Under the pieces are notes generated by a model. That model worked only from the letters and a program-made list of their open reading frames with translations. It made no database searches and was not told where the DNA came from. From Candidatus Levyibacteriota bacterium (GTDB taxonomy: Bacteria > Patescibacteriota > Microgenomatia > Levybacterales > UBA12049), in the NCBI GenBank assembly GCA_016186645.1, contig JACPLF010000007.1, forward strand, positions 75,151 to 124,650: a stretch of DNA of 49,500 bases. Direction: 5' to 3'. Position numbers and translations under genes: made by a program. Position 1 is the stretch's first letter; each line of letters opens with the position of its first letter. This document shows positions 1-33,247 of this stretch, one piece after another.

Positions 1-1746
1 TGGTACTGCCTGACATTGCATGTGAGTGCCCATGAGAGCTCTGTTGGTTTCATCATGAGAAACAAAAGGAATGAGAGATGCTGAAGTTCCGACAACCTGT
101 CTTGGAACTACGTCAACAAAATCGACTTTTTCTTTTTCAACTTCCATAAATCCACCCTGATATCTGACTGGAACTCTGTCTTGCACCAAAACATCATTTT
201 CCAAAGCGCCTGCATGAGTAATGTAATATTGTCTTTCGTCATCTGCGGCAAGGTAAATAACTTCATCTGTTGCTTTTACGATGCCTCTTTTTGATTTATC
301 AACTTTTCTGTATGGAGTTTCCAAGAATCCATGATCATTTACCTTGGAATACAAAGCCAAATAGGTAACCAAACCAATATTAGGTCCCTCAGGGCTTCTG
401 ATCGGGCAAATTCTTCCATACTGAGAGCTGTTGATGTCTCGGATTGAGAAGGCTGCACGCTCTCTTGAAATTCCGCCAGTTCCCATGACAGTCAAACGAT
501 TAAGGTTGTCAATTTCAGAAAGAGGATTTGTCTGATCCAATATGGTTGAAAGCTGAGATGTTCTGAAGAACTCATTAATTGAGGCCATAATTGGCCTTGC
601 ATTAATAAGTGCTCCGATAGATGGAGGGACATCAGGCTGAATAAGGCTCATTCTTTCCTTTATGCTTCTTTCAAGTCTTAATACTCCAACCCTGAATGCT
701 GTTGTAGCAACTAATTCCCCAACACGTCTTACTCTTCTATTTGCAAGGCTGTCAATATCATCAACACTCTCATATCCCTGAACAAGTCTAATAAGATAGC
801 TTATTGTCCCCAGAATATCTTCTCTTGTCAGAATATGAACGTCAGACTCTGTAAATCCAGTCATGTTTTTGAGTTTTTTATTAATTTTGTATCTTCCGAC
901 TCGTCCCAAGTCATAACGACGGGAATTAAAGAATAAACCATCAAAATTCTCTTTTACTTTTTCGAAAACAACCGGCTCTCCGGGGTGCATTTTTTTGAAT
1001 ATTTCTATGATTGCATCCTTGGATGTACCTGTTTCATCTTTTTGCAGAGTATTTTCTATGAAAGCAGTAACTTGCCCTGAGCGCGCCGAAGGGTCTGCTT
1101 CCAACTTCTTAAAAGATTCTTTTATGTCATCGTTCGAAGAAAATCCGATTGCTCTAAGGAATGTTGAGGCCAAGAATTTCCTTCTTCTGTCTATTTTGAC
1201 TGTTATTGTTTCGTGTCTGGTTGTGGCAAACTCAAGCCATGAACCATGAATTGGTCTTATTTCGGCTGTGTAGAGTTTTTTACCCGTAACATTGTCAAGT
1301 ACTGCTGTAAAAAATACCCCAGGAGATCTAACCAGCTGATTGACAACAGTTCTTTCTACTCCATTAATAATGAACGTTCCTCTGTCTGTCATCTGGGGAA
1401 TATCTCCCAAGAAGACTTCTTGTTCTATGGTGGCATTTGTTTTTTTGTTTGTGAGTGTGGTTTCTACGTAAAGTGGGGCATCGTACATGAGTCCTTTTGA
1501 TAAAGCGATTTCAGGGGAATTTGCAGGTTTGCCTATTCTGTATTTTTTGAATTCAAGTCTCCAGTTTTTTTCTGTAAAATCATCAATAGGAGAAATTTCT
1601 TTAATAATCTCACCAATTCCAACGTCTAGAAACCATTTGTAAGAGCTCTTCTGAACATCTAGAAGGTCTAGTTTTGGCAAGAAAGAGTATTCTTTTCCCC
1701 AGTTTTGTCGAGCAGTAGTATTAATTTTTTTATCGAGTTTAGCCAT
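1..1746 (-). CDS. rpoB: DNA-directed RNA polymerase beta subunit, 5' part (runs off the left window edge)
   Basis: Not in the ORF track; manual minus-strand translation from ATG at 1746 gives MAKLDKK...LLDVQKSSY...EVFLGDIPQMTDRGTFIINGVERTVVNQLVRSPG...DDIDSLANRRVRRVGE...LDQTNPLSEIDNLNR...GRICPIRSPEGPNIGLV...RALMGTHMQCQAVP, all RpoB motifs. Confidence 0.97.
   Translation of the reverse strand, partial: MAKLDKKINTTARQNWGKEYSFLPKLDLLDVQKSSYKWFLDVGIGEIIKEISPIDDFTEKNWRLEFKKYRIGKPANSPEIALSKGLMYDAPLYVETTLTNKKTNATIEQEVFLGDIPQMTDRGTFIINGVERTVVNQLVRSPGVFFTAVLDNVTGKKLYTAEIRPIHGSWLEFATTRHETITVKIDRRRKFLASTFLRAIGFSSNDDIKESFKKLEADPSARSGQVTAFIENTLQKDETGTSKDAIIEIFKKMHPGEPVVFEKVKENFDGLFFNSRRYDLGRVGRYKINKKLKNMTGFTESDVHILTREDILGTISYLIRLVQGYESVDDIDSLANRRVRRVGELVATTAFRVGVLRLERSIKERMSLIQPDVPPSIGALINARPIMASINEFFRTSQLSTILDQTNPLSEIDNLNRLTVMGTGGISRERAAFSIRDINSSQYGRICPIRSPEGPNIGLVTYLALYSKVNDHGFLETPYRKVDKSKRGIVKATDEVIYLAADDERQYYITHAGALENDVLVQDRVPVRYQGGFMEVEKEKVDFVDVVPRQVVGTSASLIPFVSHDETNRALMGTHMQCQAVP
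1071..1093. repeat. Palindromic repeat family A, in frame in rpoB (PSARSGQ)
   Basis: CTTGCCCTGAGCGCGCCGAAGGG; near-identical to 25668-25690. Confidence 0.85.
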
Positions 1747-1753
1747 CACCAAC

Positions 1754-1775
1754 AAAAAAAACGCACAGAGTGCAT
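1754..1775 (-). terminator. Terminator-like hairpin plus U-tract in the rpoB 5' leader (possible attenuator)
   Basis: Minus strand AUGCAC-UCU-GUGCGU followed by UUUUUUU, 7 nt before the ATG. Confidence 0.45.
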
Positions 1776-1809
1776 CACCCTAACAGGTTTTCGTTTATAG
1801 AGTAATAAA

Positions 1810-1839
1810 TTTATAACACACTTCTCTACCAAAAGTCAA
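1810..1839 (-). promoter_or_regulatory. Putative sigma70 promoter of rpoB
   Basis: TTGACT-N18-TATAAA with TG extended -10 on the minus strand. Confidence 0.55.
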
Positions 1840-1875
1840 GGGGTATTTGTAACTGTTATAATAGTTATAATTTTT

Positions 1876-2517
1876 ATGGATGCCCAACAAAAAGCCTTAA
1901 AAATCCTAATGACCCTAAAAGACTTATTTCCTACATCTAAAACAATATTAAATTATGTTACTCCTTTTGAGCTTTTGGTGGCCGTTATTTTATCTGCCAG
2001 AAATACGGATAAAAAAGTGAATGAGATTACGAGTAAACTTTTTAAAAAATATAAAACAATAAAGGATTACGCAAATGCAGATCTAAATGAGTTGGAAAAA
2101 GATTTGAATAAACTTGGACTATTCCGACAAAAAGCGAAGTTTATCAAAAATACTGCAAAAATAATTGATGAAAAGTATGGTGGTCAAATTCCAAAAACTA
2201 TGACTGAATTAATAGAACTTCCGGGAGTCGGACGCAAAACAGCAAATATTATTTTGGGAAATATTTATGGAATTGTAGAAGGGATTGCAGTCGACACCCA
2301 TGTCACAAGACTTGCCCGACTTTTCGGATTAACAAATAATAAAACTCCTGAAAAAATTGAACAAGACCTGATGAAACTTTTACCCAAAGAGGAATGGTTC
2401 AACTTCACAAACCGCATGATCGCCTATGGCCGCGCTTACTGCCCCGCCCACTGCAAACACCAAAATTGCCCATTGAAATTTTACATCACCATTAAAACTA
2501 CCCTTCATACTCTGTAG
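1876..2517 (+). CDS. nth: Endonuclease III (HhH-GPD DNA glycosylase/AP lyase)
   Basis: PFELLVAVILSA, HhH motif LPGVGRKTAN, IAVDTHV, C-terminal Cys cluster. Confidence 0.93.
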   Translation: MDAQQKALKILMTLKDLFPTSKTILNYVTPFELLVAVILSARNTDKKVNEITSKLFKKYKTIKDYANADLNELEKDLNKLGLFRQKAKFIKNTAKIIDEKYGGQIPKTMTELIELPGVGRKTANIILGNIYGIVEGIAVDTHVTRLARLFGLTNNKTPEKIEQDLMKLLPKEEWFNFTNRMIAYGRAYCPAHCKHQNCPLKFYITIKTTLHTL

Positions 2518-2525
2518 TATGGATT

Positions 2526-2549
2526 GTTCCGTTGTCTAGACAACGGAAC
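2526..2549. repeat. Perfect 24 bp palindrome between convergent genes
   Basis: GTTCCGTTGTCTAGACAACGGAAC is its own reverse complement. Confidence 0.9.
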
Positions 2550-2572
2550 TAAATAACAATCAACAAAACTCG

Positions 2573-2845
2573 CTAAGATTTTTCTTTTGCGGCGTTTTGA
2601 AAGAGGATGCTGTACATGAGCGCATCTTCGGCTAGTTTTTTATGGTCATCTTGCATTAAAACTTCATCCATTTTCAAAAGTAGATTTCGAAGATAAGGCT
2701 TAAGGCTTATGTTTTTCAACTCTTCTTTTCTTGCTTTTGCTTCCTCCGCAAACCGAGCAGCCATTGCTTCGGATCCCCGATAATACCCCTGCGCAACCCG
2801 CCGTAAGTCTAGAGCCAATGAACCAAGTGTCTGATTAACATTCAT
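2573..2845 (-). CDS. Small helical hypothetical protein coupled to the DUF5674 gene
   Basis: 90 aa ORF with an ATGA start/stop overlap with the upstream gene at 2842-2845. Confidence 0.7.
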   Translation of the reverse strand: MNVNQTLGSLALDLRRVAQGYYRGSEAMAARFAEEAKARKEELKNISLKPYLRNLLLKMDEVLMQDDHKKLAEDALMYSILFQNAAKEKS

Positions 2846-3177
2846 AATACTTCTGCAAAAAAATATTTAGTTAATTCTTCATATTTTTTCCTTATCGCTG
2901 GATCCTGAATTTCATTGCTCAAATTTTCGTTTGGTCTAATATTAATAAATGAATTATAATCAACCTGTTTTGTCTCGATGTCAATTCCACCACCCCAAAC
3001 ATCTGATTGGGATGAGCCTTGATTTAACAGAATTTTCTCTCCTTCAAAATGCCGATCCATCCCTGCAGAGCAAATTTTCTTTTCTACATCAATAACTGTT
3101 TTTATATAGACATCAAAAACTTCTTTTAATTTCTCTATTTCTTTTTTTGTATAGGGTTCTTTTTTCGTAATAATCAT
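2842..3177 (-). CDS. DUF5674-like family protein
   Basis: IKTVIDVEK...H.E.E..LL.QGS.Q.DVWGG...YNSFINIRP...EIQD pattern recognised from memory. Confidence 0.75.
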   Translation of the reverse strand: MIITKKEPYTKKEIEKLKEVFDVYIKTVIDVEKKICSAGMDRHFEGEKILLNQGSSQSDVWGGGIDIETKQVDYNSFINIRPNENLSNEIQDPAIRKKYEELTKYFFAEVL

Positions 3178-3225
3178 ACGACCATTCTACCATATGATTT
3201 TAGTCTGAGCCTTGTGTGATATAAT

Positions 3226-5067
3226 TTGAATACAATGACAGCACGGGATATTGTTGAAAAATATATTGCGTTTTTTGAGAAAAAGGGGCACAGGAGAATT
3301 CCTAATGCTCCTTTGGTTCCCCAGAATGATCCGACTACCTTATTTACAAGCTCTGGAATGCAGCCTTTGGTTCCCTATCTCTTGGGAGAAGAACACCCAA
3401 TGGGAAAAAAATTGGTAAACGTACAAAATTGTTTCCGGGCACAAGACATTGACGAAGTCGGAGATAACCGCCACACCACTTTTTTTAGAATGTTGGGAAA
3501 TTGGAGTCTTGGGGCTTATTTTAAGGAAGAACAACTGCATTTTTTCTGGGAGTTTTTAACTAAGGAGTTGGGACTATCAAAAGAAAGATTATATGTCAGT
3601 ATTTTCAATGGCTATAAGGGAGTTCCAAAAGATGTAGGCTCTCATAAGGTTTGGAAAGATTTAGGGCTACAAGAAGATCACATCTTTTTTTACGGAGCGG
3701 ACAAGAATTGGTGGTCTCGGGCGGGCACTCCAGAACAAATGCCGATTGGTGAAATTGGCGGCCCTGACAGTGAGGTTTTTTATGATTTTGGCGTACTTCT
3801 TCATGATCTTAGATATGGAAAGGAAAAAGAATGCGATCCTAATTGCGACTGTGGTAGATTTTTAGAAATTGGGAACTCTGTTTTTATGCAGTACCAAAAA
3901 CAGGAGGATGGATCCTTAAAAGAACTTTCTCAAAGAAATGTAGATTTTGGCGGAGGAGTTGAGCGTTTGATCGCAGCTACTGAAGATCAACAAGACATAT
4001 TTCAAACAGACCTCTTTGGTTCAATGGCTCAAACCATTGAACTGTTAACAAACAAAAAATATGAAGGAAATAAAAAAGAAATGAGGATTATAACTGATCA
4101 TTTTATCGCTTCTGTGTTTATAATTTCCCAGGGAATAATTCCATCCAACAAAGAACAAGGATATATTTTGCGAAGACTTATTCGCCGGGGCCTTGATCAT
4201 TTTGACAAACTTGGAGGAGCAGACCTTACTCCTATCCTTGAGAAAATTGTTGAACAATATAAAGATACCGATAAAGTTTTGACTGATAAATTCGAAGAAA
4301 TTAAAAATACAATTTTAGAAGAACAACAAAGATACAATCAAACTTTACAAACAGCTAAGCATTTTATTTTCAAAAAATACTCGCCTCGCGGCGAAGCGGG
4401 TAAAGTTGGAGACGAACTAAAGGGAGTAACTGAAATTTCAGCTGATGACGCATTTATTCTTTATACAACTCATGGTCTTTCTCCAACTCAAATAAAAAGT
4501 TTGGGTTTTGTTTTTAACAATCAGGAGTTTGCCGAGAAAATGAAAGCCCATCAAAATATTTCAAGAGCTGGGGCAAAGAAAAAATTTGCAGGAGGATTAG
4601 CGGATCATTCAGAAAAAACAATCATGGGACATACCGCGACTCATCTTCTGCATCAAGCATTAAGAGACGTTTTGGGAAACCACGTATTTCAAACTGGAAG
4701 CAATATCACATCGGAGCGAATCCGCTTTGATTTTAATTATGAAAAAGCCTTAACTCCAGATGAAATAAAAAAAGTAGAAAATATTGTTAATGAAAAAATT
4801 CTAGAAAATTTGCCTGTACATTTCGAAATGCTGCCACTCAAAAAAGCAAAAGAAATTGGAGCGATTGGACTTTTTGATGGAAAATATGAAGAAAAAGTTA
4901 AAATATATTTCATAGGTCCTTCGACTAGCTCAGGACGGCCGTACTCGGCCGAATTCTGCGGAGGCCCTCATGTTTCATTTACATCAGAGATAAAAAGTTT
5001 TAGAATAATTAAGCAGGAGAATATCGGAAAAGGGGTTAGAAGAATATATTCGAAAGTTGGAGAATAG
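3226..5067 (+). CDS. alaS: Alanine--tRNA ligase, short form lacking C-Ala (start probably ATG 3235)
   Basis: DPTTLFTSSGMQP, RHTTFFRMLGNWS, GYILRRLIRR; editing motifs HTATH and EFCGGPH. Confidence 0.96.
   Translation: MNTMTARDIVEKYIAFFEKKGHRRIPNAPLVPQNDPTTLFTSSGMQPLVPYLLGEEHPMGKKLVNVQNCFRAQDIDEVGDNRHTTFFRMLGNWSLGAYFKEEQLHFFWEFLTKELGLSKERLYVSIFNGYKGVPKDVGSHKVWKDLGLQEDHIFFYGADKNWWSRAGTPEQMPIGEIGGPDSEVFYDFGVLLHDLRYGKEKECDPNCDCGRFLEIGNSVFMQYQKQEDGSLKELSQRNVDFGGGVERLIAATEDQQDIFQTDLFGSMAQTIELLTNKKYEGNKKEMRIITDHFIASVFIISQGIIPSNKEQGYILRRLIRRGLDHFDKLGGADLTPILEKIVEQYKDTDKVLTDKFEEIKNTILEEQQRYNQTLQTAKHFIFKKYSPRGEAGKVGDELKGVTEISADDAFILYTTHGLSPTQIKSLGFVFNNQEFAEKMKAHQNISRAGAKKKFAGGLADHSEKTIMGHTATHLLHQALRDVLGNHVFQTGSNITSERIRFDFNYEKALTPDEIKKVENIVNEKILENLPVHFEMLPLKKAKEIGAIGLFDGKYEEKVKIYFIGPSTSSGRPYSAEFCGGPHVSFTSEIKSFRIIKQENIGKGVRRIYSKVGE
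4378..4402. repeat. GC-rich palindromic insert in alaS (YSPRGEAG)
   Basis: TACTCGC-CTCGCGGCGAA-GCGGGTA imperfect hairpin in an AT-rich context. Confidence 0.6.
4916..4936. repeat. Palindromic repeat family A, in frame in alaS (PSTSSGR)
   Basis: GTCCTTCGACTAGCTCAGGAC, placed just before the EFCGG editing motif. Confidence 0.8.
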
Positions 5068-5080
5068 ATTGCACAAAAAA

Positions 5081-5108
5081 CAATATAGCAATTTAGCAAT
5101 CGAGCAAT
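5081..5108. repeat. Intergenic 8-mer periodic repeat (nnAGCAAT)
   Basis: CAATATAGCAATTTAGCAATCGAGCAAT; same unit as 21928-21957. Confidence 0.7.
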
Positions 5109-5117
5109 GATTAAATT

Positions 5118-7379: not shown

Positions 7380-8082
7380 ATATTACTATTCTAAAAATGG
7401 AGATAAATTAAAAAGAAATCTTCGCCTGTTAAGCATTCTTTTTGTAGTAATCGGCGTTCTTATTATATCTTACGTTTTGTTCCCTATCATTTCTTGGCAG
7501 ATATATTTTCATCCGGCTTTCGCATCTCAAAATATAACTCCATCAATTCCCCGGGCAAATATTGTAGTAGCCAGTCTTATATCTCAAGCCGTAGATGGGA
7601 CCGACTACACTAGAGCAGAGAATTGGTTTCCTGAATTTAACCCAGACAATAAACAAATTCAAAATGATACTCCTTTTTATACTATTTCCATTCCGAAAAT
7701 AAATATAGAAGAAGCAATTGTCTCAACTGTTGATACTGACTTAACCAAACATTTAGTAAACTTCCGAGGAACAGGTATCCCCCCCCAAAATGGCAATGCT
7801 GTTATCTTTGGCCACTCTACTTTACCCCAGTTGTTTAATGTAAAAGACTATAAAACAATTTTTGCCAATGCTTATAAACTTAAAAACGGAGATAATATTT
7901 ATGCTTCTATAAAAGGAGTGAAATATTCATATAAAATATTTAAGATCGTAATTGTAGATCCTTCTGATAGTTCGGCTCTGGTTCAAGACTACGATAATTC
8001 CTATTTGACTCTTGTGACATGTACTCCGCCCGGAACTATCTGGAAGCGCCTAATCGTAAAATCAAGATTAGAAAAAATATAA
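7372..8082 (+). CDS. Sortase (class D/E-like)
   Basis: N-terminal TM, GNAVIFGHS, LTLVTCTPPG and downstream Arg (His-Cys-Arg triad). Confidence 0.9.
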   Translation: MVKYYYSKNGDKLKRNLRLLSILFVVIGVLIISYVLFPIISWQIYFHPAFASQNITPSIPRANIVVASLISQAVDGTDYTRAENWFPEFNPDNKQIQNDTPFYTISIPKINIEEAIVSTVDTDLTKHLVNFRGTGIPPQNGNAVIFGHSTLPQLFNVKDYKTIFANAYKLKNGDNIYASIKGVKYSYKIFKIVIVDPSDSSALVQDYDNSYLTLVTCTPPGTIWKRLIVKSRLEKI

Positions 8083-8196
8083 ACATGGAAAAGAATCATC
8101 CTGTCATTTATAGATTTATTAACAACTTACTTTATTTTATTCTGTCTTCATTTAAAAGCGCTGTCTCGTTGATATTCAAACAAATAAAACAATAAT

Positions 8197-9495
8197 ATGA
8201 TTAAAGTAAAAGGATTTGAAAAACAGATTAGTCAACAAAATGCTCTTTCTGCCATCAGGAAAAAACTTGTTGGAAAGACTCTTAATTATAAAGAAATTTT
8301 CAGCATAATGGACCAAATTGCCAAACAAAGATTGGGAGAAGTGCTAACAACATATTTTGCTGCATCCGGATATACGCAGGGATTTACAAATCAAGAACTT
8401 TATTTCCTCACAAAAGCCATGATCGAAACAGGAGAGAAATTACATTTCAAAGGAATTGTCGCAGACAAACATTCAATAGGCGGAGTTCCCGGTAATCGTA
8501 CGACTCTTATTGTAGTACCAATTATTGCAGCAGCCGGATTTTTGATTCCGAAAAGTTCCAGTCGTGCAATAACAACTAGCGGCACTGCAGATGACATGGA
8601 AATCTTGGCTCCAGTTATCCTCCCAAAAGAAAAAATACTCAAAATTGTAAAGAAAATAAAAGCTTGCATTGTTTGGGGAGGAAATTTTAATATTGCTCCT
8701 GCTGATGATTTGATCATTAATGTTGAAAAGGAATTAATGTTCGAAAGTTTCGACAAAATTATCCTTTCTATAATGGCAAAAAAAGTTGCTTTTGGCGCAA
8801 ATCACGTAGTGATAGACCTGCCTTATGGACAAACTTTAAAAGTGACGCACCTCAAAGACGCAGAAATTTTAAAAAATAAATTTGAGTATATTGCAAAAAA
8901 ATTTAATATAAAAATCCGAGTTCTGATTCATAGGACAGATGAACCTGTTGGGCGTGGCATTGGCCCTATCCTTGAGACAAAAGATGCCCTGAAAGTTTTG
9001 GAACAGACACCGGATAAACCTCTTGATCTTGAAATTAGAAGTTTAACTCTTGCAGGAAATCTTTTAGAGCTTTGTTTAAAAGACTCTGGGCAAAAATTAC
9101 AAGGGTCTGTCCGAGAAAATTTTGGCGATTGCATAGGTTGGGCGACAAAAATCTTACAAGATGGCTCTGCTTTGAAAAAAATGAAGGAGATAATTTTTGA
9201 ACAGGGAGGAAACCCAAATATTAATAGTAACAAATTAATACCAGGTGAATTTACTTATAAATTTAATGCAGAAAAAAATTGCGTAATTAAAGATATAGAC
9301 AGTAAAAATCTTACTCTTCTTGTGAAAGCGCTAGGTGCTCCATTACAAAAAGGTTCGGGAGTTTTCTTGGACAAAAAAGAGGGCGAGAAAGTGGAAAAAG
9401 GCGAGACGCTCTGTACACTTTACAGCGAAAACGTGTATAATCTGAGAAACGGAAAGAAGACAATCCAGGAATTTCCGATATTCAGTTTTTACTAA
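8197..9495 (+). CDS. AMP phosphorylase / thymidine phosphorylase family (archaeal type), lacking the N-terminal domain
   Basis: DKHSIGGVPGNRTT, SSRAIT..GTAD, APADD, SIMAKK, PVGRGIGPILE. Confidence 0.9.
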   Translation: MIKVKGFEKQISQQNALSAIRKKLVGKTLNYKEIFSIMDQIAKQRLGEVLTTYFAASGYTQGFTNQELYFLTKAMIETGEKLHFKGIVADKHSIGGVPGNRTTLIVVPIIAAAGFLIPKSSSRAITTSGTADDMEILAPVILPKEKILKIVKKIKACIVWGGNFNIAPADDLIINVEKELMFESFDKIILSIMAKKVAFGANHVVIDLPYGQTLKVTHLKDAEILKNKFEYIAKKFNIKIRVLIHRTDEPVGRGIGPILETKDALKVLEQTPDKPLDLEIRSLTLAGNLLELCLKDSGQKLQGSVRENFGDCIGWATKILQDGSALKKMKEIIFEQGGNPNINSNKLIPGEFTYKFNAEKNCVIKDIDSKNLTLLVKALGAPLQKGSGVFLDKKEGEKVEKGETLCTLYSENVYNLRNGKKTIQEFPIFSFY

Positions 9496-23769: not shown

Positions 23770-26178
23770 TTAATAGTGGGGTTTGCGGAAGCGGGAGCCT
23801 CCCGGACGAGATCCCAAAGCAGCACCCCCCGGAGTTCTTCTGTCTCTCCAGTTGCCCCCGGTTCTGGTCGGTCCTTGGGAAAAACGCTCTCTTCTGAATT
23901 GTCTGGACAAAGGGTGCTCGGAGGGAGTCGTGGGAACAGGGCCTTGTTCTCCTGTTGGCTGAGATAACACATTCCAGGTCCCACGCCTGTCTTCACTTTC
24001 GCTTCGCAGGCGAGCTCGGTCGCCGCCTTCGGCTCCCTGCGCTCCAAATAACATTGATAAGTTAGTTCTTCCCTGTTCGTCGATTTCTACAACTTTAACT
24101 TTAACTTTCTGTCCGATCTGTACCACATCTGTTGGATTGCGGACAAATCCCTCTTTCATTTTGGATACATGAACCATTCCTTCTTTTCCTGGAAGATATT
24201 CAACAAATGCTCCAAAAGGAAGTATTCTTTTTACCTCAGCGTCTTCAAAAATTTCTCCAACCTTTACTTCTCGGGTAATGCCCTTGACCCACTCAACTGC
24301 TTTCGCAACTGCGTTTTCATCTGTTCCTGAAATAGTTACCACTCCTGAATCTTCAACATCTACAGCTGCGCCAGTTGTTGCAATTATATTTTTGATAACT
24401 CGTCCGCCCGGCCCGATAACTTCGCCGATTTTATCAACTGGAATTTGAACTTGTTCTATTTTTGGAGCATACTCTGAAATACCTTTTCTGGTAGTTCCAA
24501 CAACTGCAATCATTTTCTCAAGAATAAATAATCTTGCCTTTTTTGCTTTCTCAAAAACTTCTTTGATTTGTTCTATTGTAAGTCCTAAAATTTTTACATC
24601 CAGCTGAATTGCTGTAATTCCACTATCTGTCCCTGCAACTTTAAAATCCATATCTCCTGAAAAATCTTCAAGTCCCAAAATATCTGTCAATATAACATAT
24701 TTTGCCCCATCCGAAATCATTCCCATTGCAATCCCGGCAACTGGTTTTTTGATTGGAACTCCCGCATCCATAAGAGCCAGTGTTGATCCGCAAGCTGCTG
24801 CCATTGACGTTGAACCATTGGAAGAAAGAATTTCTGAAACAACTCTAATTGTATAAGGAAATTCTGTTTGTGTTGGGATAACAGCCATTATTGCTCTCTC
24901 ACCCAAAGCTCCATGTCCTATTTCCCGTCGCGATGTAAACCCAAATCTCCCGGCCTCTCCAACTGAATATGGAGGCATATTATAGTGATGGATGTATTTT
25001 TTGGATTCTTCTCCTTCTGCAGATTCTATTAATTGTTCCAAACGGGGAGAACCCAAAGTCACAATTGTCAAAGCCTGAGTATCTCCCCTATTAAATATTG
25101 CTGATCCGTGAGTTCTTGGGAGAACCGCAACTTGACATGAGATTGGCCTTATTTCGGAAGCCGTTCTTCCATCAGGTCTCACTCCTTTAACCAAAGTTGT
25201 CTCTCTGAGGTTTTTGAACATTACATATTCAACAGCTTTTGCAATTAATTTTTTATCAAATTCGAAATCTGGAGCCTGTCCTGAGCCTGCCGAACGGGTT
25301 TTTTCTTGTTCAATAATTTTATCTATAAAGTCTTCGGCATCTCCACTTGATTCTTTATTAACTCTGTTTTTAATCATTCCAACGATTTCATCTTTGTATG
25401 ATTTTTCCAAAAGTGCAATTAATTCCTGATATTCTGTGTTTGGCTTAACTTCTTCTTTCTTTGCTCCATTTTTCTTGGCGAAATCTTCAATGAAATTGAT
25501 AATTTTATCGTTTTCGTTTTGTGCTTTTTTAATTGCATCAAGTGCTATATCTTCTGAGACTTGCAAAGCTCCTGCTTCAAGCATCAAAGTTTTACTCCTC
25601 AAACTGGTGACAATTAAATCCAATTCTGAAAGTTCGGATTCTGCAACTCCGGGATTAACAATAAATCCTTGCCCTGAGCCCGCCGAAGGGTCTTTTTCTT
25701 TAACATATCCAATTCTGACTGCTCCAACCGGACCCTTCCAGGGAATTGGGGAAATTGCCAGTGCTGCTGAAGTAGCAACAACCGCTAAAACATCAGGAGA
25801 ATTGTCTCCATCTACTGATAAAATTGTGGCAATTATCTGTACTTCTTTTTTGAATTCTTTTGGAAAAAGGGGTCTGACAGATCGATCTATGAGACGAGCT
25901 GATAAAATCGCGTCATCTGTTGGTCTTCCTTCTCTTTTTACCCATCTACTTCCTTTGATTCTTCCTCCCGCATACAGTCTTTCGACATATTCAACAGTGA
26001 GCGGGAAATAATCAATATCTGATCTTTCTTTTCCCATGACAACAGTTACCAAAACCATGGTATCTCCAAGACGGGCTAGAACAGAAGAAGTTGCGAGTTT
26101 CGCAAGATTTCCTATTTCTAATGTTAAGGTTTTTCCGCCAATCTCTAGGGTTGCTGTAATCTTTTTATTTGTAATCAT
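23770..26178 (-). CDS. pnp: Polyribonucleotide nucleotidyltransferase with a ~90 aa Arg/Gly-rich C-terminal tail
   Basis: FPLTVEY, RTHGSA, RREIGHG, SNGSTSMA, GDMDFKVAGT, KH and S1 domains. Confidence 0.97.
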   Translation of the reverse strand: MITNKKITATLEIGGKTLTLEIGNLAKLATSSVLARLGDTMVLVTVVMGKERSDIDYFPLTVEYVERLYAGGRIKGSRWVKREGRPTDDAILSARLIDRSVRPLFPKEFKKEVQIIATILSVDGDNSPDVLAVVATSAALAISPIPWKGPVGAVRIGYVKEKDPSAGSGQGFIVNPGVAESELSELDLIVTSLRSKTLMLEAGALQVSEDIALDAIKKAQNENDKIINFIEDFAKKNGAKKEEVKPNTEYQELIALLEKSYKDEIVGMIKNRVNKESSGDAEDFIDKIIEQEKTRSAGSGQAPDFEFDKKLIAKAVEYVMFKNLRETTLVKGVRPDGRTASEIRPISCQVAVLPRTHGSAIFNRGDTQALTIVTLGSPRLEQLIESAEGEESKKYIHHYNMPPYSVGEAGRFGFTSRREIGHGALGERAIMAVIPTQTEFPYTIRVVSEILSSNGSTSMAAACGSTLALMDAGVPIKKPVAGIAMGMISDGAKYVILTDILGLEDFSGDMDFKVAGTDSGITAIQLDVKILGLTIEQIKEVFEKAKKARLFILEKMIAVVGTTRKGISEYAPKIEQVQIPVDKIGEVIGPGGRVIKNIIATTGAAVDVEDSGVVTISGTDENAVAKAVEWVKGITREVKVGEIFEDAEVKRILPFGAFVEYLPGKEGMVHVSKMKEGFVRNPTDVVQIGQKVKVKVVEIDEQGRTNLSMLFGAQGAEGGDRARLRSESEDRRGTWNVLSQPTGEQGPVPTTPSEHPLSRQFRRERFSQGPTRTGGNWRDRRTPGGAALGSRPGGSRFRKPHY
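23984..24044. repeat. Two adjacent GC-rich hairpins forming the start of the PNPase tail
   Basis: CGCCTG...CAGGCG and GAGC..GG...GCCTTCGGC..CC..GCTC. Confidence 0.5.
25275..25298. repeat. Palindromic repeat family A, in frame in pnp (RSAGSGQ)
   Basis: CCTGTCCTGAGCCTGCCGAACGGG. Confidence 0.8.
25668..25690. repeat. Palindromic repeat family A, in frame in pnp (PSAGSGQ)
   Basis: CTTGCCCTGAGCCCGCCGAAGGG. Confidence 0.85.
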
Positions 26179-27759: not shown

Positions 27760-27822
27760 TTCAAAATTAAAAATTAAAAGTTCAAAATTAACTTTGAACT
27801 TTGCACTTTGAACTTTAAACTT
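27760..27822. repeat. Heptamer periodic repeat block
   Basis: Shares 27 bp AACTTTGAACTTTGCACTTTGAACTTT (27790-27816) with 26662-26688. Confidence 0.85.
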
Positions 27823-29337
27823 CTACCCGTGGCATATTAACATATCGCCTATAGTAAAGTCAAGAAAGGGAAAAATGATAACGCCGCCCTCCTGACCTTC
27901 CTCTATTTTTGAAACCACATTTTTTCCAGTTCGGACAGAATTAATTGTACTTTCTCCAATAATTTTTTCTTTTCTAATTAGTCTTACTTTGTCACCACGA
28001 GCGACTCTGCCTTCCAATACTTTTATTCCCAAAACTTTTGTCTTTTCAAACGGAAAACTAGCTAGGATTTTTGCTCTTCCATAAATCTCTTCAACAAGTG
28101 CCAATTGTTTTCCTTCTAACACATCTTTTATTTCTGTTATTAGTTCGTAGATAATCTTATAGTTTCTTGCTAAAACTTTTTCCTGCAGGGCAAATTTGAC
28201 AATTTCCGGCTTTATTCTTACGTTAAAACCCAATACAATTGCGTTGATTGATTTGGCTAACAAGATGTCTGTTGTTGTAATGTCTCCTGTTTTCTTAAGA
28301 GCAATATTTATTTCCGGGGGAAGGGACCTGACAATTGCTTCCAAAGATCCTTCGTTGTCTGCACATAAAACTATAGAAAGGGTCGGAACTTCTACTTCAT
28401 TTAGAAAATCCTCCGGCATCGGCATCGCTTCCTGCCCGGAATGAAAAGGTATTGCAGGAGCAATAGAAGGAGAAGAATTCTTCGCCAATTCTGAATTCTG
28501 AATTCTGAATTCTGAATTCTGAACTATTCCTCCGACCATTGGTACTTTTTCAAATCCCAGAACCTCAATAGCTTCCCCAACGCCTGCTTTATCCAAATGC
28601 TTACCCTTGTCATTTATTATTGTTCTCACTCTTGCCTTTATTCCTTCACATTCAATTTCGTCTTTGACTTTTAGTTCTCCGGATTTTATAATTACTGTTG
28701 CTCTTGGTCCGGATTTTTGATCAAGTTGGGACTCAATAACAATTCCTTTTAATTTGTTGTCCAAAACCGGCTTTTGCTTCATTTCAAAAACAAGAGAGAT
28801 TAATTCCAATAATTCTTTTATATTCGTATTTGTCTTTGCTGAAACAGAAATTACAGGAATATCTCCACCATATCCTTCTAACAAAACTTCTTCTTTTACC
28901 AATTGTCCCTTAACTTTTTCTTCATTTTTATCAGGGGCGTCTGATTTGGTTACAACAACAATAAAAGGAATTTGCGCTTTTTTCAGAATCTCAATGCTTT
29001 CCTTTGTTTGAGGCATGACTCCATCAACAGAAGAGACTACTAACAAGCCAATATCGGCAGCTTGTGTTCCGCGTCCTCTCATGTGAGCAAAAGCTTCATG
29101 TCCGGGGGTATCTATAAATGTTATACGCTTCTTAACTCCCTCAACCACCAATTCTATGCTGGATGCTCCGATTCCCTGAGTAATTCCGCCATGTTCACGT
29201 GAAGCCACATTTGTTTTTCTGATTGCATCCAAAAGTGAAGTTTTTCCATGATCAACATGACCCAAAACAGTAACAACGGGAGGATAATTTATTTGAGATT
29301 TATCTGAAGATTGTACATTAATATTTTTTTTGACCAT
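27823..29337 (-). CDS. infB: Translation initiation factor IF-2 (N-terminally short form)
   Basis: PPVVTVLGHVDHGKT, GGITQ, FIDTPGHEAF, GVMPQT. Confidence 0.96.
   Translation of the reverse strand: MVKKNINVQSSDKSQINYPPVVTVLGHVDHGKTSLLDAIRKTNVASREHGGITQGIGASSIELVVEGVKKRITFIDTPGHEAFAHMRGRGTQAADIGLLVVSSVDGVMPQTKESIEILKKAQIPFIVVVTKSDAPDKNEEKVKGQLVKEEVLLEGYGGDIPVISVSAKTNTNIKELLELISLVFEMKQKPVLDNKLKGIVIESQLDQKSGPRATVIIKSGELKVKDEIECEGIKARVRTIINDKGKHLDKAGVGEAIEVLGFEKVPMVGGIVQNSEFRIQNSELAKNSSPSIAPAIPFHSGQEAMPMPEDFLNEVEVPTLSIVLCADNEGSLEAIVRSLPPEINIALKKTGDITTTDILLAKSINAIVLGFNVRIKPEIVKFALQEKVLARNYKIIYELITEIKDVLEGKQLALVEEIYGRAKILASFPFEKTKVLGIKVLEGRVARGDKVRLIRKEKIIGESTINSVRTGKNVVSKIEEGQEGGVIIFPFLDFTIGDMLICHG
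28487..28523. repeat. (AATTCTG)x5 perfect heptamer tandem repeat inside infB
   Basis: Encodes QNSEFRIQNSEL. Confidence 0.95.
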
Positions 29338-29345
29338 AACATATT

Positions 29346-29427
29346 AAATTTCTAATTACTAATTTCTAATTAACCTAATCAAGTCCCAAGTTCCAACTTA
29401 GAAATTAGAGTAATTAGGTTAATTAGG
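29346..29427. repeat. Intergenic periodic repeat with inverted arms
   Basis: CTAAT-based units; perfect 14 bp inverted repeat 29366-29379 / 29413-29426. Confidence 0.75.
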
Positions 29428-30498
29428 TCAATTTGTTTTCTTCTCTTTCTTAGGTTCTTCTTTCTTTTCTTCTGTCTCCTTGGTCTCCTTTGGCTCTTCT
29501 GAAACTTTTTTAATTGTCTTATCCTCCTCTATTTCAATTCTATAATCTGTTAATTTAGAAGCAAGACGAACATTCTGTCCGTCCCGGCCGATTGCTAGAG
29601 ATAGCTCTTCAACTGGAACAAATACATGAGCAATTTTCTCCTCTTGCCCTTCCGAAGCTTTAGCGGAGGAGGGTTTCTTATCCAGCTCAACTCTCACGTT
29701 TTTTGCAGGAGACAAGGCCTGCGCAATATAATCCTTTGCATTTTCCTGCCACTGAATAATGTCGATTTTCTCAACCCCCGAAAATTCCTGAATAATAGCC
29801 TGAACTCTAACTCCCCTTTGTCCAACGCAGCTTCCGACAGGATCAATTCCCTGCTGATTTGAATAAACAGCAACCTTGCTTCTTGCTCCCGGCTCTCTTG
29901 CGATATTTTTTATAACCACACTTCCTTTAGCAACTTCAGGAACTTCTCTTTTAAAAAGTCCTTCCAAAAGTCCATTACTTGCTCTTGAAACAATAATTTC
30001 GTCGCCTTTTAATCCAGCTCTTATTTCAGAAATGTAAACAGCAAGCCTCTGATTCAAATGATATTTTTCATTGGGAATTTGCTCCGGGATCGGCATCAAA
30101 GCCTCTGTCTTTCCGACATCAACTATTATATTCGGGCCTGCGAATCGTAAAATCATTCCATTTACAATGGTTCCGACTCTTAATTTGTAGTCTGCGATTA
30201 TCGCTTCCTTTTCTTTTTCTCTGATTTTTTGCAGAATTACCTGTCTTGCTGTCTGGGCTGCAATTCTTCCGAATCCCGGAGGTGTAACATCTTTATTTTT
30301 ATGTAAAACTGTGGCTTCTCCTGTGTTTTTGTCTAAAGTTGCTGTGTATTCTTCAAGCTCAGCATCAGCGTGATCTTTTTTGTAAGCAGCCAAAATTGCA
30401 TTCTTGACTGTGTCTAGTACAACTTCGACGTCAACGCCTCTTTCGTTGGCGACCTGATTAAGCGCTAATAAAAATTCCGATCTTTGAACTGCCGGCAT
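29428..30498 (-). CDS. nusA: Transcription factor NusA (start likely ATG 30498)
   Basis: FGRIAAQTARQVI, AREPGARSK, DPVGSCVG, LAIGRDGQNVRLA. Confidence 0.96.
   Translation of the reverse strand: MPAVQRSEFLLALNQVANERGVDVEVVLDTVKNAILAAYKKDHADAELEEYTATLDKNTGEATVLHKNKDVTPPGFGRIAAQTARQVILQKIREKEKEAIIADYKLRVGTIVNGMILRFAGPNIIVDVGKTEALMPIPEQIPNEKYHLNQRLAVYISEIRAGLKGDEIIVSRASNGLLEGLFKREVPEVAKGSVVIKNIAREPGARSKVAVYSNQQGIDPVGSCVGQRGVRVQAIIQEFSGVEKIDIIQWQENAKDYIAQALSPAKNVRVELDKKPSSAKASEGQEEKIAHVFVPVEELSLAIGRDGQNVRLASKLTDYRIEIEEDKTIKKVSEEPKETKETEEKKEEPKKEKKTN
29644..29673. repeat. Family-B palindrome, in frame in nusA KH2 (PSSAKASEGQ)
   Basis: TTGCCCTTCCGAAGCTTTAGCGGAGGAGGG. Confidence 0.75.
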
Positions 30499-30564
30499 AA
30501 TAGTTGGTAGTATACCAGATTCAGGATCACCTATCAACAGCTTAAAGTAGAAATTGGACCTATC

Positions 30565-30816
30565 TTATCCGTGTTTAAGCTTGAGGAATAAGATGCTTAG
30601 ATTAAAAGCCTGAAATATAATATTTGGAATCAATATTGCGACTTGATTGGTAATCAAACCATAAACTACCCATAAAAATGTACCTATATTTAAAAGTATG
30701 TACATTTGGAGTGAAATATCGCTGGTTTTTTTACTTGTGATAATTTTTATAATCTGGGGCAAAGAAGCAATAACTACAAATCCTCCCGCGACCAATCCTA
30801 AAACGGTTATAAACAT
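30565..30816 (-). CDS. SemiSWEET / PQ-loop transporter
   Basis: 83 aa, 3 TM, LPQIIK...DIS...LWVVYG...N. Confidence 0.9.
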   Translation of the reverse strand: MFITVLGLVAGGFVVIASLPQIIKIITSKKTSDISLQMYILLNIGTFLWVVYGLITNQVAILIPNIIFQAFNLSILFLKLKHG

Positions 30817-30862
30817 AAAATATATTTATTATAATAATGTATATTTAATTACCTGTCAATTG

Positions 30863-33247
30863 TTAATTGACTAATTGTAAATTATTTGAAGAATCTACGG
30901 AAATGTTAATTTTATCGCCTCTTTTTATTTCGTCTTTAAGTATTTTCTGAGCAATTAGATTTTCAATGTTGTTTTGGATAAACCGGCTAAGAGGACGGGC
31001 GCCGAATTCCTGATCAAACCCCTCTGTTGCAATTTTTTCAATTACTTTTTCGTCAAAACTAACAGTTATATCTTTTTCCAAAAGCTTCTTCTCTAAATCG
31101 GTGAGTAAGAGCTTAACGATTTGGGAAACCTCTTGACCTTCCAATGGCTTAAACACAATAATTCCATCAAACCTATTCAAAAGTTCCGGACGGAAAATCC
31201 CTTTTGTTTGCAAAACTTCAAGAAGCTTCTTCTTAAAATTGCTATCTATGCTAGTTCCCTTTGCGACTTCCTCTCTTATGTATTCAGACGCTGCATTTGA
31301 GGTTGCAATAATTATCGCATCTGCAAATGAGACTGTTTTACCTACATTATTCGTAAGTCTTCCGTCGTCAAAAACTTGTAAAAAAAGGTCTATAGTTTTG
31401 GGGTTTGCTTTTTCGAATTCGTCAAGCAAAACTAGAGAGAAAGGACGCTCATGCACCTCATCTGTAAACCCTTTAGATCCAATTGTTCCTCCCAAAAGAC
31501 GAGTAACTCCTTCTTCCGTTGAGTATTCGCTCATATCCGCCCTTATCATTTTATTCTCACCAAAATATATATTGGACAGTGTTTTTGCAACCAGTGTTTT
31601 CCCAACTCCTGTTGGGCCTAAAAATAGAAATGATATTGGCTTTACTTTATTATTTAATCCTGCTCTAAGTCTTCTTAAAGCTTGAGAAATTTCAGAAATA
31701 GCATCTTTTTGTCCGATTATATATTTTGATAATTCATTATCCAAACGCAATAATAGATTGGCTTCATCTTCTTTCGGCGTTCCCACCGCAATTTTAGTTT
31801 TAACTCCAACTTTATCCAATACATCTTGCTCTTCAACGATTTTGCGGCCTGTTGTTGCAACAGCTGTTGCCGAATCTTCAAGAAGACTGACTCCTGATCC
31901 GGGCATTACCCTGTCAGGCAGATATTTCTTTGCATATTCGCAAACAGAAACAACAGCCTTATAAGAAATTGAAACTTTACTTTTCTTTTCAACTTCCGCG
32001 GTTTTTTGTAAAAGCATCCGAAGGAATGAGTCTTTATCGGGTTCTTCAAATTTTACAATCTCAAAAACGCTTTCCAAGGTATGCTTTGGTTCAACAAATT
32101 TACTAAAAGATGTGGGTGTAATACTGGCAATTATTTTTATGCTACCCTTTTGTAAATATGGGATGAGCACTCCGGACAGGTCGGTATTGAAAGTAGGGGA
32201 TCCTAAAACATTTTCGAAATTGGGGATATAAACAATAATATTTCCGGAATGAGTAAGCTCTGATATGACATTATTCAAACGTTCTTCCAATTGTCCTTGA
32301 CTCTGAATCCCTGCCAATAAACTATCAACTGAGATTTGAAAAAATCTTTGGTGATACAAGTTTCCTTTTATGTCTCCGACAAAACTTTCAAAAGCTAAAG
32401 AATTTACAAGAGAACTTTTCCCGCTCCCTGGCTCTCCAACCAACATAACGCTTTTATTTTTACTAAGGGTCTCAACGACCTCACGAAATTGCTCTTCTCT
32501 CCCTAAAAGCAAAGGCTTGAAAGTCAAAGCATCTTTTGTTATATCAACTACATATTTATTTGTTTCCACTGTCCATCCGCTAACCCACCCTTCTCCTATG
32601 CCTTCCCCCCAAAACTTTATTTTAAATGGTTCTCTGTTTTCTTCTTTCTGATAAGTATTTTTGACCCAATAAAGAATATGCAATAGCTCTTCTTTTTTGA
32701 GTTCTTTTTTAAATAAAATTTTTGTCTCATCCTCGGTCATCAATAAATAGGCTGCAAAAATATCCATAGTTGTCACATATTTTCCTTTCATGTTTTTGCT
32801 ATTTTCAAAAGCTAATTTGGCCAATGTTTCTTTGGTGATATCTATAAAAGAGACTTCTTTTTCCTGAATATTTCCTTTTCGCAGAAGAAATTTGATCTGG
32901 GGCTTTCCAAGAAGTATTTTCACTATATCTTTCGTACTGAAAGGGCTAAAAGTGCTCAACGCTTCTATGGTAAAAGAACTATAGACATCAACTTGCCCCG
33001 AACCAGCCGAAGGGTTGTCTTTAACTTCAAGAGCAGGAGGGATTCTTGAAATTTTGAAGTGGAAAAATATCTCCCACATTAAAAAAATTGACAAAATGAA
33101 AATTGGAACTTCAGACGCCGTTGTCAGAGAAAAATTAAAAGATAGACTTAGATAAACAAGCCAGAGTAACCATGCAAAAATTATTATTCTTAATAATTTT
33201 GCTGACAGCCTATTGTAAATAGAATAAATTTTGGCGAAGTGTTTCAT
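30863..33247 (-). CDS. Membrane-anchored ClpA/B-like AAA+ ATPase
   Basis: Two N-terminal TM segments, GEPGSGKS, GPTGVGKT, LLDEFEKA, FRPELLNR, FGARPL. Confidence 0.88.
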   Translation of the reverse strand: MKHFAKIYSIYNRLSAKLLRIIIFAWLLWLVYLSLSFNFSLTTASEVPIFILSIFLMWEIFFHFKISRIPPALEVKDNPSAGSGQVDVYSSFTIEALSTFSPFSTKDIVKILLGKPQIKFLLRKGNIQEKEVSFIDITKETLAKLAFENSKNMKGKYVTTMDIFAAYLLMTEDETKILFKKELKKEELLHILYWVKNTYQKEENREPFKIKFWGEGIGEGWVSGWTVETNKYVVDITKDALTFKPLLLGREEQFREVVETLSKNKSVMLVGEPGSGKSSLVNSLAFESFVGDIKGNLYHQRFFQISVDSLLAGIQSQGQLEERLNNVISELTHSGNIIVYIPNFENVLGSPTFNTDLSGVLIPYLQKGSIKIIASITPTSFSKFVEPKHTLESVFEIVKFEEPDKDSFLRMLLQKTAEVEKKSKVSISYKAVVSVCEYAKKYLPDRVMPGSGVSLLEDSATAVATTGRKIVEEQDVLDKVGVKTKIAVGTPKEDEANLLLRLDNELSKYIIGQKDAISEISQALRRLRAGLNNKVKPISFLFLGPTGVGKTLVAKTLSNIYFGENKMIRADMSEYSTEEGVTRLLGGTIGSKGFTDEVHERPFSLVLLDEFEKANPKTIDLFLQVFDDGRLTNNVGKTVSFADAIIIATSNAASEYIREEVAKGTSIDSNFKKKLLEVLQTKGIFRPELLNRFDGIIVFKPLEGQEVSQIVKLLLTDLEKKLLEKDITVSFDEKVIEKIATEGFDQEFGARPLSRFIQNNIENLIAQKILKDEIKRGDKINISVDSSNNLQLVN
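32992..33014. repeat. Palindromic repeat family A, in frame in the Clp ATPase (PSAGSGQ)
   Basis: CTTGCCCCGAACCAGCCGAAGGG. Confidence 0.8.

Follow-up and report, generated by a model that had tools for sequence, protein, structure and literature searches.

The window analysed here is a 49,500-nucleotide (nt) stretch of a Candidatus Levyibacteriota genome (G000:C5:75151-124650, where G000 denotes the genome under study: 880,460 bp in 11 contigs, 94.9% complete), and it carries five copies of a short palindromic cassette, each read in frame within a gene for a core protein. An earlier note, made by a model from the letters of the window alone, had reported five such copies in four unrelated proteins. 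The copies can be read directly at those places, all of them on the sense strand of the host gene, and by Pfam the host proteins are RpoB, AlaRS, PNPase and a ClpB-like AAA+ ATPase. The 5' part of rpoB lies in the window (1-1755, minus strand; the whole open reading frame (ORF) encodes 1136 aa), and its insert at 1069-1093, with the motif itself at 1071-1093(-) (CCCTTCGGCGCGCTCAGGGCAAG), falls in Rpb2 domain 2 and is read as D-PSARSGQV-T. A diverged copy in alaS (3226-5067, plus strand, 613 aa), located at the start of the tRNA_SAD domain, has the letters TCCTTCGACTAGCTCAGGACGGC and the reading G-PSTSSGR-P; the note was right about its presence and slightly off in its position, which is 4917-4939(+) rather than 4916-4936. 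Two copies occur in pnp (23770-26178, minus strand, 802 aa): copy 1 (25668-25690(-), CCCTTCGGCGGGCTCAGGGCAAG, D-PSAGSGQ-G) in a beta-hairpin loop of the first RNase PH module, and copy 2 (25275-25297(-), CCGTTCGGCAGGCTCAGGACAGG, T-RSAGSGQAP-D) in the all-alpha domain. The fifth copy (32992-33014(-), CCCTTCGGCTGGTTCGGGGCAAG, N-PSAGSGQ-V) is found in the N-terminal region of the clpB-like gene (30863-33247, minus strand, 794 aa). The five copies share one frame, and their peptides (PSARSGQ, PSTSSGR, RSAGSGQ and twice PSAGSGQ) are of the PS(A/T)xSG(Q/R) type.

A search of the window with the pattern CCCTTCG-N5-CTCAGGGCAAG, allowing up to 3 mismatches, gave 4 matches, all on the minus strand, compared to 0.00 expected from 100 dinucleotide-preserving shuffles of the window. 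The alaS copy differs from the search consensus by 5 mismatches and retains TTCG and CTCA, and its TCC/GGA stem pairs completely. On the sense strand the unit reads NNN-TTCG-RCRRG-CTCA-N'N'N'-CARG-TY, an imperfect palindrome of ~24 nt, or eight codons, and the G+C content of the motif is 74% compared to 36% in the genome. Codons that are rare in this genome are kept in the copies: TCG (8.2% of Ser codons), GGG and GGC (14% and 16.8% of Gly codons, with GGA at 50.8%) and CGG (6% of Arg codons). Because these rare codons are kept and, across the genome, three reading frames are used, the likeness among copies lies in the DNA and not in the peptide; some copies are, moreover, intergenic. The clp copy has drifted at third positions with the peptide kept, as first described, through three synonymous changes (GCT, GGT and TCG).

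The antisense strand can pair as CCC-T-GA-G / C-GA-A-GGG with tandem G.A mismatches; the same positions on the sense strand give U.C and C.U. The tandem G.A hairpin proposed in the note is visible in the sequence and its stem is backed by compensating changes, while its predicted energy is weak. Stem pairing was compared among 68 copies picked solely for an exact TTCG-RCRRG-CTCA. All three stem pairs are present in 44 of the 68 and in none when the partner is shifted by one position, and eight complementary stem types occur (CCC/GGG, TCC/GGA, TGG/CCA, CTC/GAG, TGC/GCA, CAC/GTG, CAG/CTG and TAT/ATA). Mispairing is frequent at the position adjoining TTCG (CCA or CCG with GGG or GGA). These compensating changes in aligned copies demonstrate constraint on the predicted stem structure. 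The flanks also show preferences, with CAAG or CAGG on the 3' side in 43 of 68 copies and mostly A on the 5' side (35 of 68). Searches of Rfam 15 at gathering score gave no match overlapping a copy, either in the window or in 22 loci of other phyla, and permissive Rfam scans around copy 1 returned chance-level matches alone (best E=3.3). A known RNA family was accordingly rejected as the identity of the element, there being no Rfam match on any copy scanned. Separately, an acidobacterial locus (L097:6856-6902(-)) contains a match to Acido-Lenti-1 away from the motif (38 bits, gathering score 37), with a second partial Acido-Lenti-1 copy beside it.

When the whole genome was scored on core, loop, stem pairing and tail, 24 copies reached a score of at least 17, compared to none in the reversed genome (at score 16 the counts were 8 and 3), which corresponds to a density of ~1 copy per 37 kb (24 in 880 kb). 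Nineteen of the 24 lie singly within long ORFs, 19 of 19 on the sense strand. Sixteen of these are read as PSxxSGQ, two as LRxAQxK (yebC and pheS), and one as PFGKLRA, which forms the N-terminus of an IMPDH-like ORF. The remaining five are intergenic or uncertain, and three of them are situated just upstream of a gene and in its direction. The earlier claim of one orientation and one frame therefore extends to the whole genome as far as orientation is concerned, whereas the single frame is a property of the window. Outside the window, hosts confirmed by Pfam are UPF0102/YraN, L19, YebC, trigger factor, PheS, UvrD, DnaG, HisRS, S2, a 6-phosphogluconolactonase-family protein, a pyridine-nucleotide disulphide oxidoreductase, a class I aminoacyl-tRNA synthetase (aaRS) and LeuRS; L25, IMPDH and RecA were identified by visual inspection of the translations. 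The motif also has a 1-mismatch match at G000:C5:213391-213413, in a class I aaRS ORF (212661-214832(-)), where it is read as WPFAALRASP and appears to overlap a conserved stretch of the aaRS rather than a loop.

The preference for the sense strand recurs in other genomes. In G014, 13 of 14 clear copies are in sense ORFs of at least 158 aa and none is antisense, and G008 has 5 sense copies and 1 antisense. One of the antisense frames of the motif holds a TGA and two are open; because two of the three are open, the near-absolute sense bias is not due to stop codons alone. The rpoB and alaS copies are 4 kb apart and point in opposite directions, each matching its gene, and the orientation therefore follows transcription and not replication. 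The sole clear antisense copy seen within a gene (L280:7898, in G008:C50) lies in a PheT-like ORF (7528-8445(+)), upstream of the B3_4 domain, and is read as YPEPVEG.

Comparisons with orthologues indicate that the copies are derived rather than ancestral, in line with the earlier note: three of the five window copies are specific to this genome and the other two are located in loops that vary within the genus. In rpoB, GGG AAA is replaced by 24 nt (net +18 nt) in this genome alone among 19 orthologues; in clp, GAT GGG is replaced by 21 nt (net +15 nt), again in this genome alone among 19 orthologues; and in pnp copy 2, unique among 30 orthologues, AAA GAT GAG (9 nt) gives way to 27 nt. Copy 1 of pnp is polymorphic in the genus, being present or decayed in L002, L003, L006 and L007 and absent in L004 and L005, and in L007 a second copy is nested in the loop of the first. 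Among 16 alaS orthologues, 4 have no insert in the loop and the rest have decayed or double inserts of differing lengths, so that by sequence comparison this loop is an old insertion hot spot.

The comparison was extended to eight more hosts in five genomes of the same genus. In L19, 24 nt have been inserted cleanly (GAC|AAA to GAC-24 nt-AAA), in a copy that is shared with one relative and has already decayed here; HisRS has 24 nt in place of 9 nt and UvrD 24 nt in place of 18 nt; DnaG has gained ~24 nt, common to one relative and partial in another; and in pheS and yebC 24 nt are swapped for 24 nt with the length unchanged. In two genomes of the genus (L294 in G000 and L335 in G003) the S2 loop is occupied by copies that are read in different frames and look like independent hits on one hot spot. 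No target-site duplication was seen at any filled/empty site compared, and the loss of target amounted to 0, 6, 9, 18 or 24 nt. The unit can be set at ~24 nt (eight codons) because these filled and empty sites differ without duplication. The clean insertion of 7-8 aa anticipated in the note is thus mostly not what is found: a ~24-nt cassette replaces a variable amount of target. All net changes in length are divisible by three. Short runs of letters are common to the junctions, as the target GGG codon aligns with the motif GGG in rpoB and clp, and the target GGT CAA with the motif GGA CAA in uvrD. Decay after insertion is visible in the L19 and clp copies and in relatives at alaS and pnp copy 1, and orthologous copies in other assemblies carry substitutions.

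A tree of nine proteins places this genome beside (G004,G006) and (G001,(G003,G005)), with one fork unresolved. The presence of copies conflicts with this tree, the L19 copy being in G000 and G005 and the HisRS and DnaG copies in G000 and G001, and repeated gain and loss, or allele exchange, is therefore needed. Per-gene identity to G000 is heterogeneous across G001-G006 (pheS, clp and alaS); for pheS it is 52% in G004/G006 and 83% in G003. Because of this heterogeneity, recombination or gene replacement between lineages within the genus is likely, which is a caveat on the presence patterns.

The window stretch is present in contigs of four runs from one groundwater study, compared at 80% likeness, a level at which many aligned contigs come from other organisms. 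The runs listed for the stretch include none of RNA. Contigs of two of the runs (X1 and X4) span pnp copy 2 and the clp copy with 0 differences. At window positions 25648-25650, contigs of the same two runs (X1 record 2 and X4 record 8) end ~18-20 nt before pnp copy 1. This copy is shorter than the assembly word, yet the contigs of both runs stop just before it, and strain variation at that site may be the reason.

The location of the two pnp copies was considered in an AlphaFold2 model of PNPase built from a 30-sequence alignment (mean predicted local distance difference test score (pLDDT) 78.2, predicted template modelling score 0.73). Copy 1 is predicted to form a loop between strands E152-159 and E171-174, with a pLDDT of 53 in the 10-residue block compared to 92 before and 85 after it, and copy 2 the end of helix H280-298 together with loop 299-308 (block pLDDT 72 and 65). 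Both copies thus fall between modelled secondary-structure elements with lowered pLDDT, in accord with the proposal in the note that copies survive where they encode a flexible loop. The same model has a C-terminal tail of ~90 residues (~713-802; window 23770-24040) that is rich in Arg, Gly and Pro and has pLDDT <50.

The element is not peculiar to this lineage. At up to 2 mismatches the motif is found in 31 of 41 relatives of the order, where the reversed pattern gives 1 match in total. The exact 22-mer CCTTCGACAAGCTCAGGNCARG occurs in at least 120 stretches among 185,579 species genomes, and the matches listed, from at least fifteen bacterial groups, include Acidobacteriota, Chloroflexota, Pseudomonadota, Planctomycetota, Verrucomicrobiota, Bacteroidota, Ignavibacteria, Nitrospirales, Gemmatimonadales, Chlamydiota, Omnitrophota, Eremiobacterota, Binatia, Microbacterium, Saccharibacteria and Parcubacteria. 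Two of the stretches come from isolates, and isolate records with copies include a Xenophilus and a Polaromonas. Five of these genomes have 127, 18, 118, 70 and 14 copies (up to 1 mismatch) compared to 0-1 for the reversed pattern, and in these five, which are chromosomes of other phyla, copies are divided about evenly between the two strands. The exact 22-mer is also present in 34 stretches of predicted viral contigs (IMG/VR, L341-L374). In-frame hosts confirmed by Pfam in other phyla are PolX, GyrB and an RNase J-like protein (Saccharibacteria), a histidine kinase (Parcubacteria), a Ser/Thr kinase (Vicinamibacteria), PutA (Microbacterium), LeuRS (Acidobacteriaceae) and MutL (Sphingomonas), ORFs having been sought on the motif strand alone, so that these hosts are uninformative on orientation.

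In the genomes of other phyla, many copies lie between genes, nest in one another or form tandem arrays with a period of 24 nt; in a Nitrospirales genome, nested copies and positions between genes predominate. Where two copies are nested, the inner one stands directly 5' of a CARG of the outer one and itself also ends in CARG. The nesting sites are the A^CAAG loop (L112, L037, L083, L077 and L087), G^CGGG (L007) and CT^CAGG (Nitrospirales loci); gene targets show no fixed tetranucleotide, while nested copies do adjoin CARG. Some copies are situated at the tips of unrelated GC-rich hairpins. A flanking stem of at least 7 bp accompanies 14% of 129 copies compared to 4.7% of shuffled flank pairs, an effect so modest that insertion into the loops of other hairpins was rejected as a general rule. 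Tandem arrays with the 24-nt period, which repeat PSTSSGQ(A/D), extend inside long ORFs of other phyla (L116:196-1989(-), L125:1-2706(+), L075 and L089). In the Nitrospirales loci L248-L250 (G043:C1), sister sub-families share TTCG...CTCA and have a CTWCG or CGTTG loop or a TGAC tail, and the composites there consist of a copy nested in a copy, itself inside the loop of a GC-rich hairpin.

We therefore suggest that the five window sites represent copies of a GC-rich ~24-nt cassette from a dispersed repeat family that crosses phyla. The explanation that we prefer, with a probability slightly better than even (roughly 0.55), is a selfish non-autonomous mini-element that is filtered by selection to permissive in-frame sites. 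Selfish non-autonomous behaviour is suggested because the copies are derived, polymorphic, incongruent with the tree, nested, arrayed, paired in the stem and decaying. The note's description of a short, dispersed, non-autonomous repeat is upheld to this extent, with 24 copies in the genome and with nesting and arrays. Existing copies would serve as the source of new ones, which would enter the chromosome as DNA and often displace 0-24 nt of target. For the copying itself we lean towards an intermediate in the form of a single-stranded hairpin, or towards fill-in synthesis templated at a break or fork, in either case with another copy as the donor. The sense-strand bias could arise from selection on the peptide or the mRNA, or from access to the non-template strand. 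In this gene-dense genome, the persisting copies would be those that landed in the sense direction, in frame, and where a housekeeping protein has a permissive loop or variable segment; they would mostly be read as PS(A/T)xSGQ, with the DNA motif then decaying freely.

Several observations weigh against a selfish element of this kind. The lack of duplication together with a variable loss of target, up to an exact swap in pheS and yebC, is unlike known transposition and fits repair or conversion better. The sense orientation is near-absolute and goes beyond what stop codons explain. No empty-site allele is listed among the contigs of runs X1, X4, X5 and X7, and contigs cannot reveal rare variants; filled and empty alleles could also have been shuffled between strains by homologous recombination. 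The hairpin energy is no better than that of shuffled sequences on either strand, as RNA or as DNA (RNA -3.5 to -3.9 kcal/mol). Hairpin stability was rejected as an explanation on the same grounds, since neither strand folds better than shuffles. Finally, no trans-acting enzyme was found among the candidates examined, namely Y1_Tnp nucleases of the HUH type, which include the tyrosine transposases associated with repetitive extragenic palindromic (REP) sequences (RAYTs), reverse transcriptases (RVT_1), and the genes around the dense cluster L112. Y1 genes track the motif only weakly: of the 41 relatives, 22 have both motif and Y1, 9 the motif only, 4 Y1 only and 6 neither, a table to which no statistical test was applied because the relatives are not independent. 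Of 8 motif-rich genomes, 5 are without a Y1_Tnp match, among them the genome with 127 copies. RVT_1 has no match in this genome or in G014 (23 copies), and 10 of the 41 relatives have one. The presence of the motif is independent of Y1/RAYT and of reverse transcriptase. A reverse-transcriptase route of the retron, diversity-generating retroelement or group II type was rejected on the absence of RVT_1 from these two motif-bearing genomes, and a mobiliser beside L112 was rejected as well, the ORFs there being ordinary housekeeping genes or without family.

A bolder reading, which we regard as doubtful, is a mobile 24-nt cassette found across bacteria, neutral to the frame through its length and stop-free in three sense frames, that is copied into chromosomes, and also into essential genes, without a transposase of any known family and without a reverse transcriptase. 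A possible route would be for the hairpin single strand to patch breaks or forks, or to do so where transcription exposes the non-template strand. If true, the cassette would be the smallest self-propagating DNA known in bacteria and would amount to a natural, ongoing peptide-insertion scan of core proteins.

It is rather unlikely that repair alone, with no mobiliser, accounts for the copies. Under this scenario, a break or stalled fork in a gene would receive a ~24-nt patch from another copy by short templated synthesis or ectopic gene conversion after variable resection, and the family would persist only as copies seed copies. The scenario would accommodate the missing target-site duplication, the graded loss of target with its two length-preserving replacements, the short letter matches at the rpoB, clp and uvrD junctions, and the lack of a co-occurring transposase or reverse transcriptase; old decayed copies in the same loops (alaS, pnp copy 1 and uvrD) could prime the conversion. 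However, it leaves unexplained why distant phyla have the same 22-mer as their repeated unit, why stem changes compensate each other, why nesting takes place at one defined point by CARG, and why orientation follows the gene, and the L19 event is a clean insertion with zero bases lost.

We consider it improbable that the motif is a functional sense-strand cis-element, acting in mRNA or in non-template DNA as the binding or processing site of a factor common to many bacteria or as an uptake- or recombination-type signal, and kept by selection or biased conversion. Such a role would be consistent with the strong sense bias in genes and 5' leaders, with the invariance of TTCG, CTCA and CARG across phyla while the stems covary, and with the length-neutral replacement in pheS and yebC, which a drive towards the motif would give. 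The positions of copies, however, are not conserved between orthologues, and once inserted the DNA motif decays while peptide or frame stays (clp and L19). The density is far under that of uptake signals, 10 of the 41 related genomes are without the motif, no Rfam family matches, the predicted hairpin is weak, and the complete chromosomes of other phyla use both strands about equally.

Still less credible is a classical REP/REPIN family whose mobiliser would be a RAYT-type Y1 HUH nuclease with its gene at another place in the genome. The element is indeed short and imperfectly palindromic, with a conserved tetranucleotide next to its stem, motif and Y1 gene occur together in 22 of the 41 relatives, and the genome does contain three diverged Y1_Tnp genes (G000:C10:25050-25718, L031 1285-1953(-); G000:C8:16655-17329, L032 1330-2004(+); and G000:C10:66992-67639, L033 1312-1959(+)). 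All three are on other contigs than the window, which contains no mobilising enzyme, as the earlier note had stated. Their products (215-224 aa) have 'REP-associated tyrosine transposase' as the best NCBIfam match at 44-57 bits, below the cut-off of 80, and their motifs (NH[VF]H, FQ, YIHLNP and an SS tail, in ~220 aa) fit subclass 2.1, for which the relevant part of Quentin et al. 2018 (PMC6006769) gives no known REPs and no REP-like flanks. Each Y1 gene is flanked on both sides by a palindrome of its own (cores AACCTGGAAGGTT, ACACCCCGAGGGTGT and ACACACCAGGT), which recurs at 1-6 other places in the genome, and not by the cassette motif. The cassette has no GT[AG]G or CGTC tag. With flanks, tag and co-occurrence (Y1_Tnp lacking in most motif-rich genomes, and relatives with motif alone or Y1 alone) all against it, mobilisation by a RAYT is largely refuted, and with it the link to REP/RAYT systems drawn in the note. 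Relatives G004, G006 and others have up to 8 diverged Y1_Tnp paralogues in genomes of ~1 Mb, which is unusually many.

Convergent selection for a PSxGSGQ linker or recognition peptide, or an assembly or sequencing artefact, which the one peptide common to the five window copies and the synonymous-only changes of the clp copy might suggest, has next to no probability and is refuted, as the same DNA encodes three unrelated peptides in three frames, the rarest codons are used, copies are found between genes and in other phyla, the stretch recurs in contigs of four runs with X1 and X4 spanning copies at 0 differences, and orthologous copies in other assemblies differ by substitutions.

The element is of wider interest in several respects. 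It marks natural sites at which core enzymes tolerate an insert or swap of eight residues (RpoB, PNPase, several aaRS, DnaG, UvrD, GyrB, MutL and the ribosomal proteins L19 and S2), which could be useful for tagging and engineering. The occurrence of one 22-mer from small genomes, probably of the Patescibacteria type, to Acidobacteriota, Nitrospirota and Pseudomonadota without a known mobiliser points to an undiscovered trans-acting factor or to repair-based multiplication. The cassette peptides, in three sense frames and in antisense, will seed spurious ORFs and 'conserved motifs', and knowledge of the element allows them to be masked. Finally, the presence or absence of copies allows the history of strains, and recombination among them, to be followed at fine scale in uncultured lineages.

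Small repeats lying in frame within genes are already established, judging from the parts of the literature compared, through the Rickettsia palindromic elements (RPEs; Ogata et al. 2000, as cited in PMC10969869), the GTAG/CGTC REPs (PMC3733652) and the review by Delihas (PMC3184786), and one passage of Di Nocera et al. 2013 (PMC3733652) describes 'untagged' palindromic families as still to be explored. The motif strings and peptides have no description in the searchable literature, which comprises main texts, while the supplementary repeat lists of PMC3733652 and PMC6006769 may hold related ones; they are absent from the main text of PMC3733652, and the passages compared in papers on REPs, RAYTs, RPEs, miniature inverted-repeat transposable elements and coding repeats of the PARCEL type do not describe the motif either. 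The cassette fails the defining features of REP/RAYT systems (tag, a RAYT gene flanked by the same REPs or 'REPtron', co-occurrence), of RPEs (size, lineage) and of miniature inverted-repeat transposable elements (terminal inverted repeats, duplication). The surprising parts are the single 22-mer across phyla and the fact that no mobiliser is tied to it.

Intragenic REPs, in the portion of PMC3733652 that treats them, resemble the cassette in being dispersed palindromic repeats of 20-40 nt, located partly inside ORFs with the frame intact, in replication, repair and tRNA-synthetase hosts and sometimes twice per gene; the corresponding hosts of the cassette include UvrD, DnaG, RecA, aaRS genes and PNPase. 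The REP tag GTAG/CGTC, as given in the pertinent sections of PMC6006769 and PMC3733652, is not in the cassette, which has an internal TTCG/CTCA mismatch pair and a 3' CARG instead. A cognate RAYT is flanked by the same REPs, whereas no such unit exists for the cassette and other palindromes flank Y1; REPs are mostly extragenic and often form inverted doublets, whereas 19 of 24 cassette copies here are intragenic and single; and REP families are lineage-specific, whereas the cassette sequence recurs across phyla. RPEs, on the account in the relevant part of PMC10969869, are likewise selfish palindromic DNA in frame in unrelated housekeeping genes of a reduced AT-rich genome, and are translated and compatible with the protein fold, as the cassette appears to be from its reading frames. 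The same source gives ~100-150 bp and tens of residues for RPEs, in Rickettsia only, compared to 24 nt, eight residues and many phyla for the cassette. Unlike RPEs, the cassette is read in three frames and often replaces target residues.

Miniature inverted-repeat transposable elements have terminal inverted repeats and generate target-site duplications, whereas the cassette shows no duplication and frequent target loss. DNA uptake signals occur at ~1 per kb and are lineage-specific and position-independent; the cassette differs in its density of ~1 per 37 kb and in its presence in many phyla. The AT-rich mitochondrial genomes of fungi contain mobile G+C clusters and translationally bypassed hairpin inserts, which are short GC-rich palindromes found also in coding regions. 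These clusters are similar to the cassette as GC-rich palindromes in an AT-rich, gene-dense genome. Unlike the bypassed mitochondrial inserts, the cassette adds multiples of three, with bacterial hosts and a sequence that crosses phyla; since net changes are multiples of three and no stop is introduced, plain translation suffices.

The insertion sequence IS608 inserts 3' of its target tetranucleotide. Nested cassettes are comparable in that they adjoin CARG on the sense strand, which is CYTG on the other strand, with the insert 3' of CYTG, whereas copies in genes have no fixed tetranucleotide at their targets. Elements of the IS200/IS605 type, in the part of PMC6006769 that deals with them, further share with the cassette hairpin DNA, the lack of target-site duplication and a strand-specific behaviour. 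In contrast to them, the presence of the cassette needs no TnpA, target bases are lost, orientation follows the gene and not the replichore, and the unit is far smaller than any known pair of left and right ends. The palindromic amphipathic repeat coding elements described in 2010 (PARCELs; PMC2996958) are, in the sections of that report compared here, coding repeats with dyad symmetry and a patchy distribution in distant microbes that are thought to have moved horizontally, all of which applies to the cassette in some form. They consist, however, of 25-residue units in long tandem tracts in surface proteins or proteins of unknown function, according to the same sections of PMC2996958, whereas the cassette occurs as single eight-codon units in conserved enzymes.

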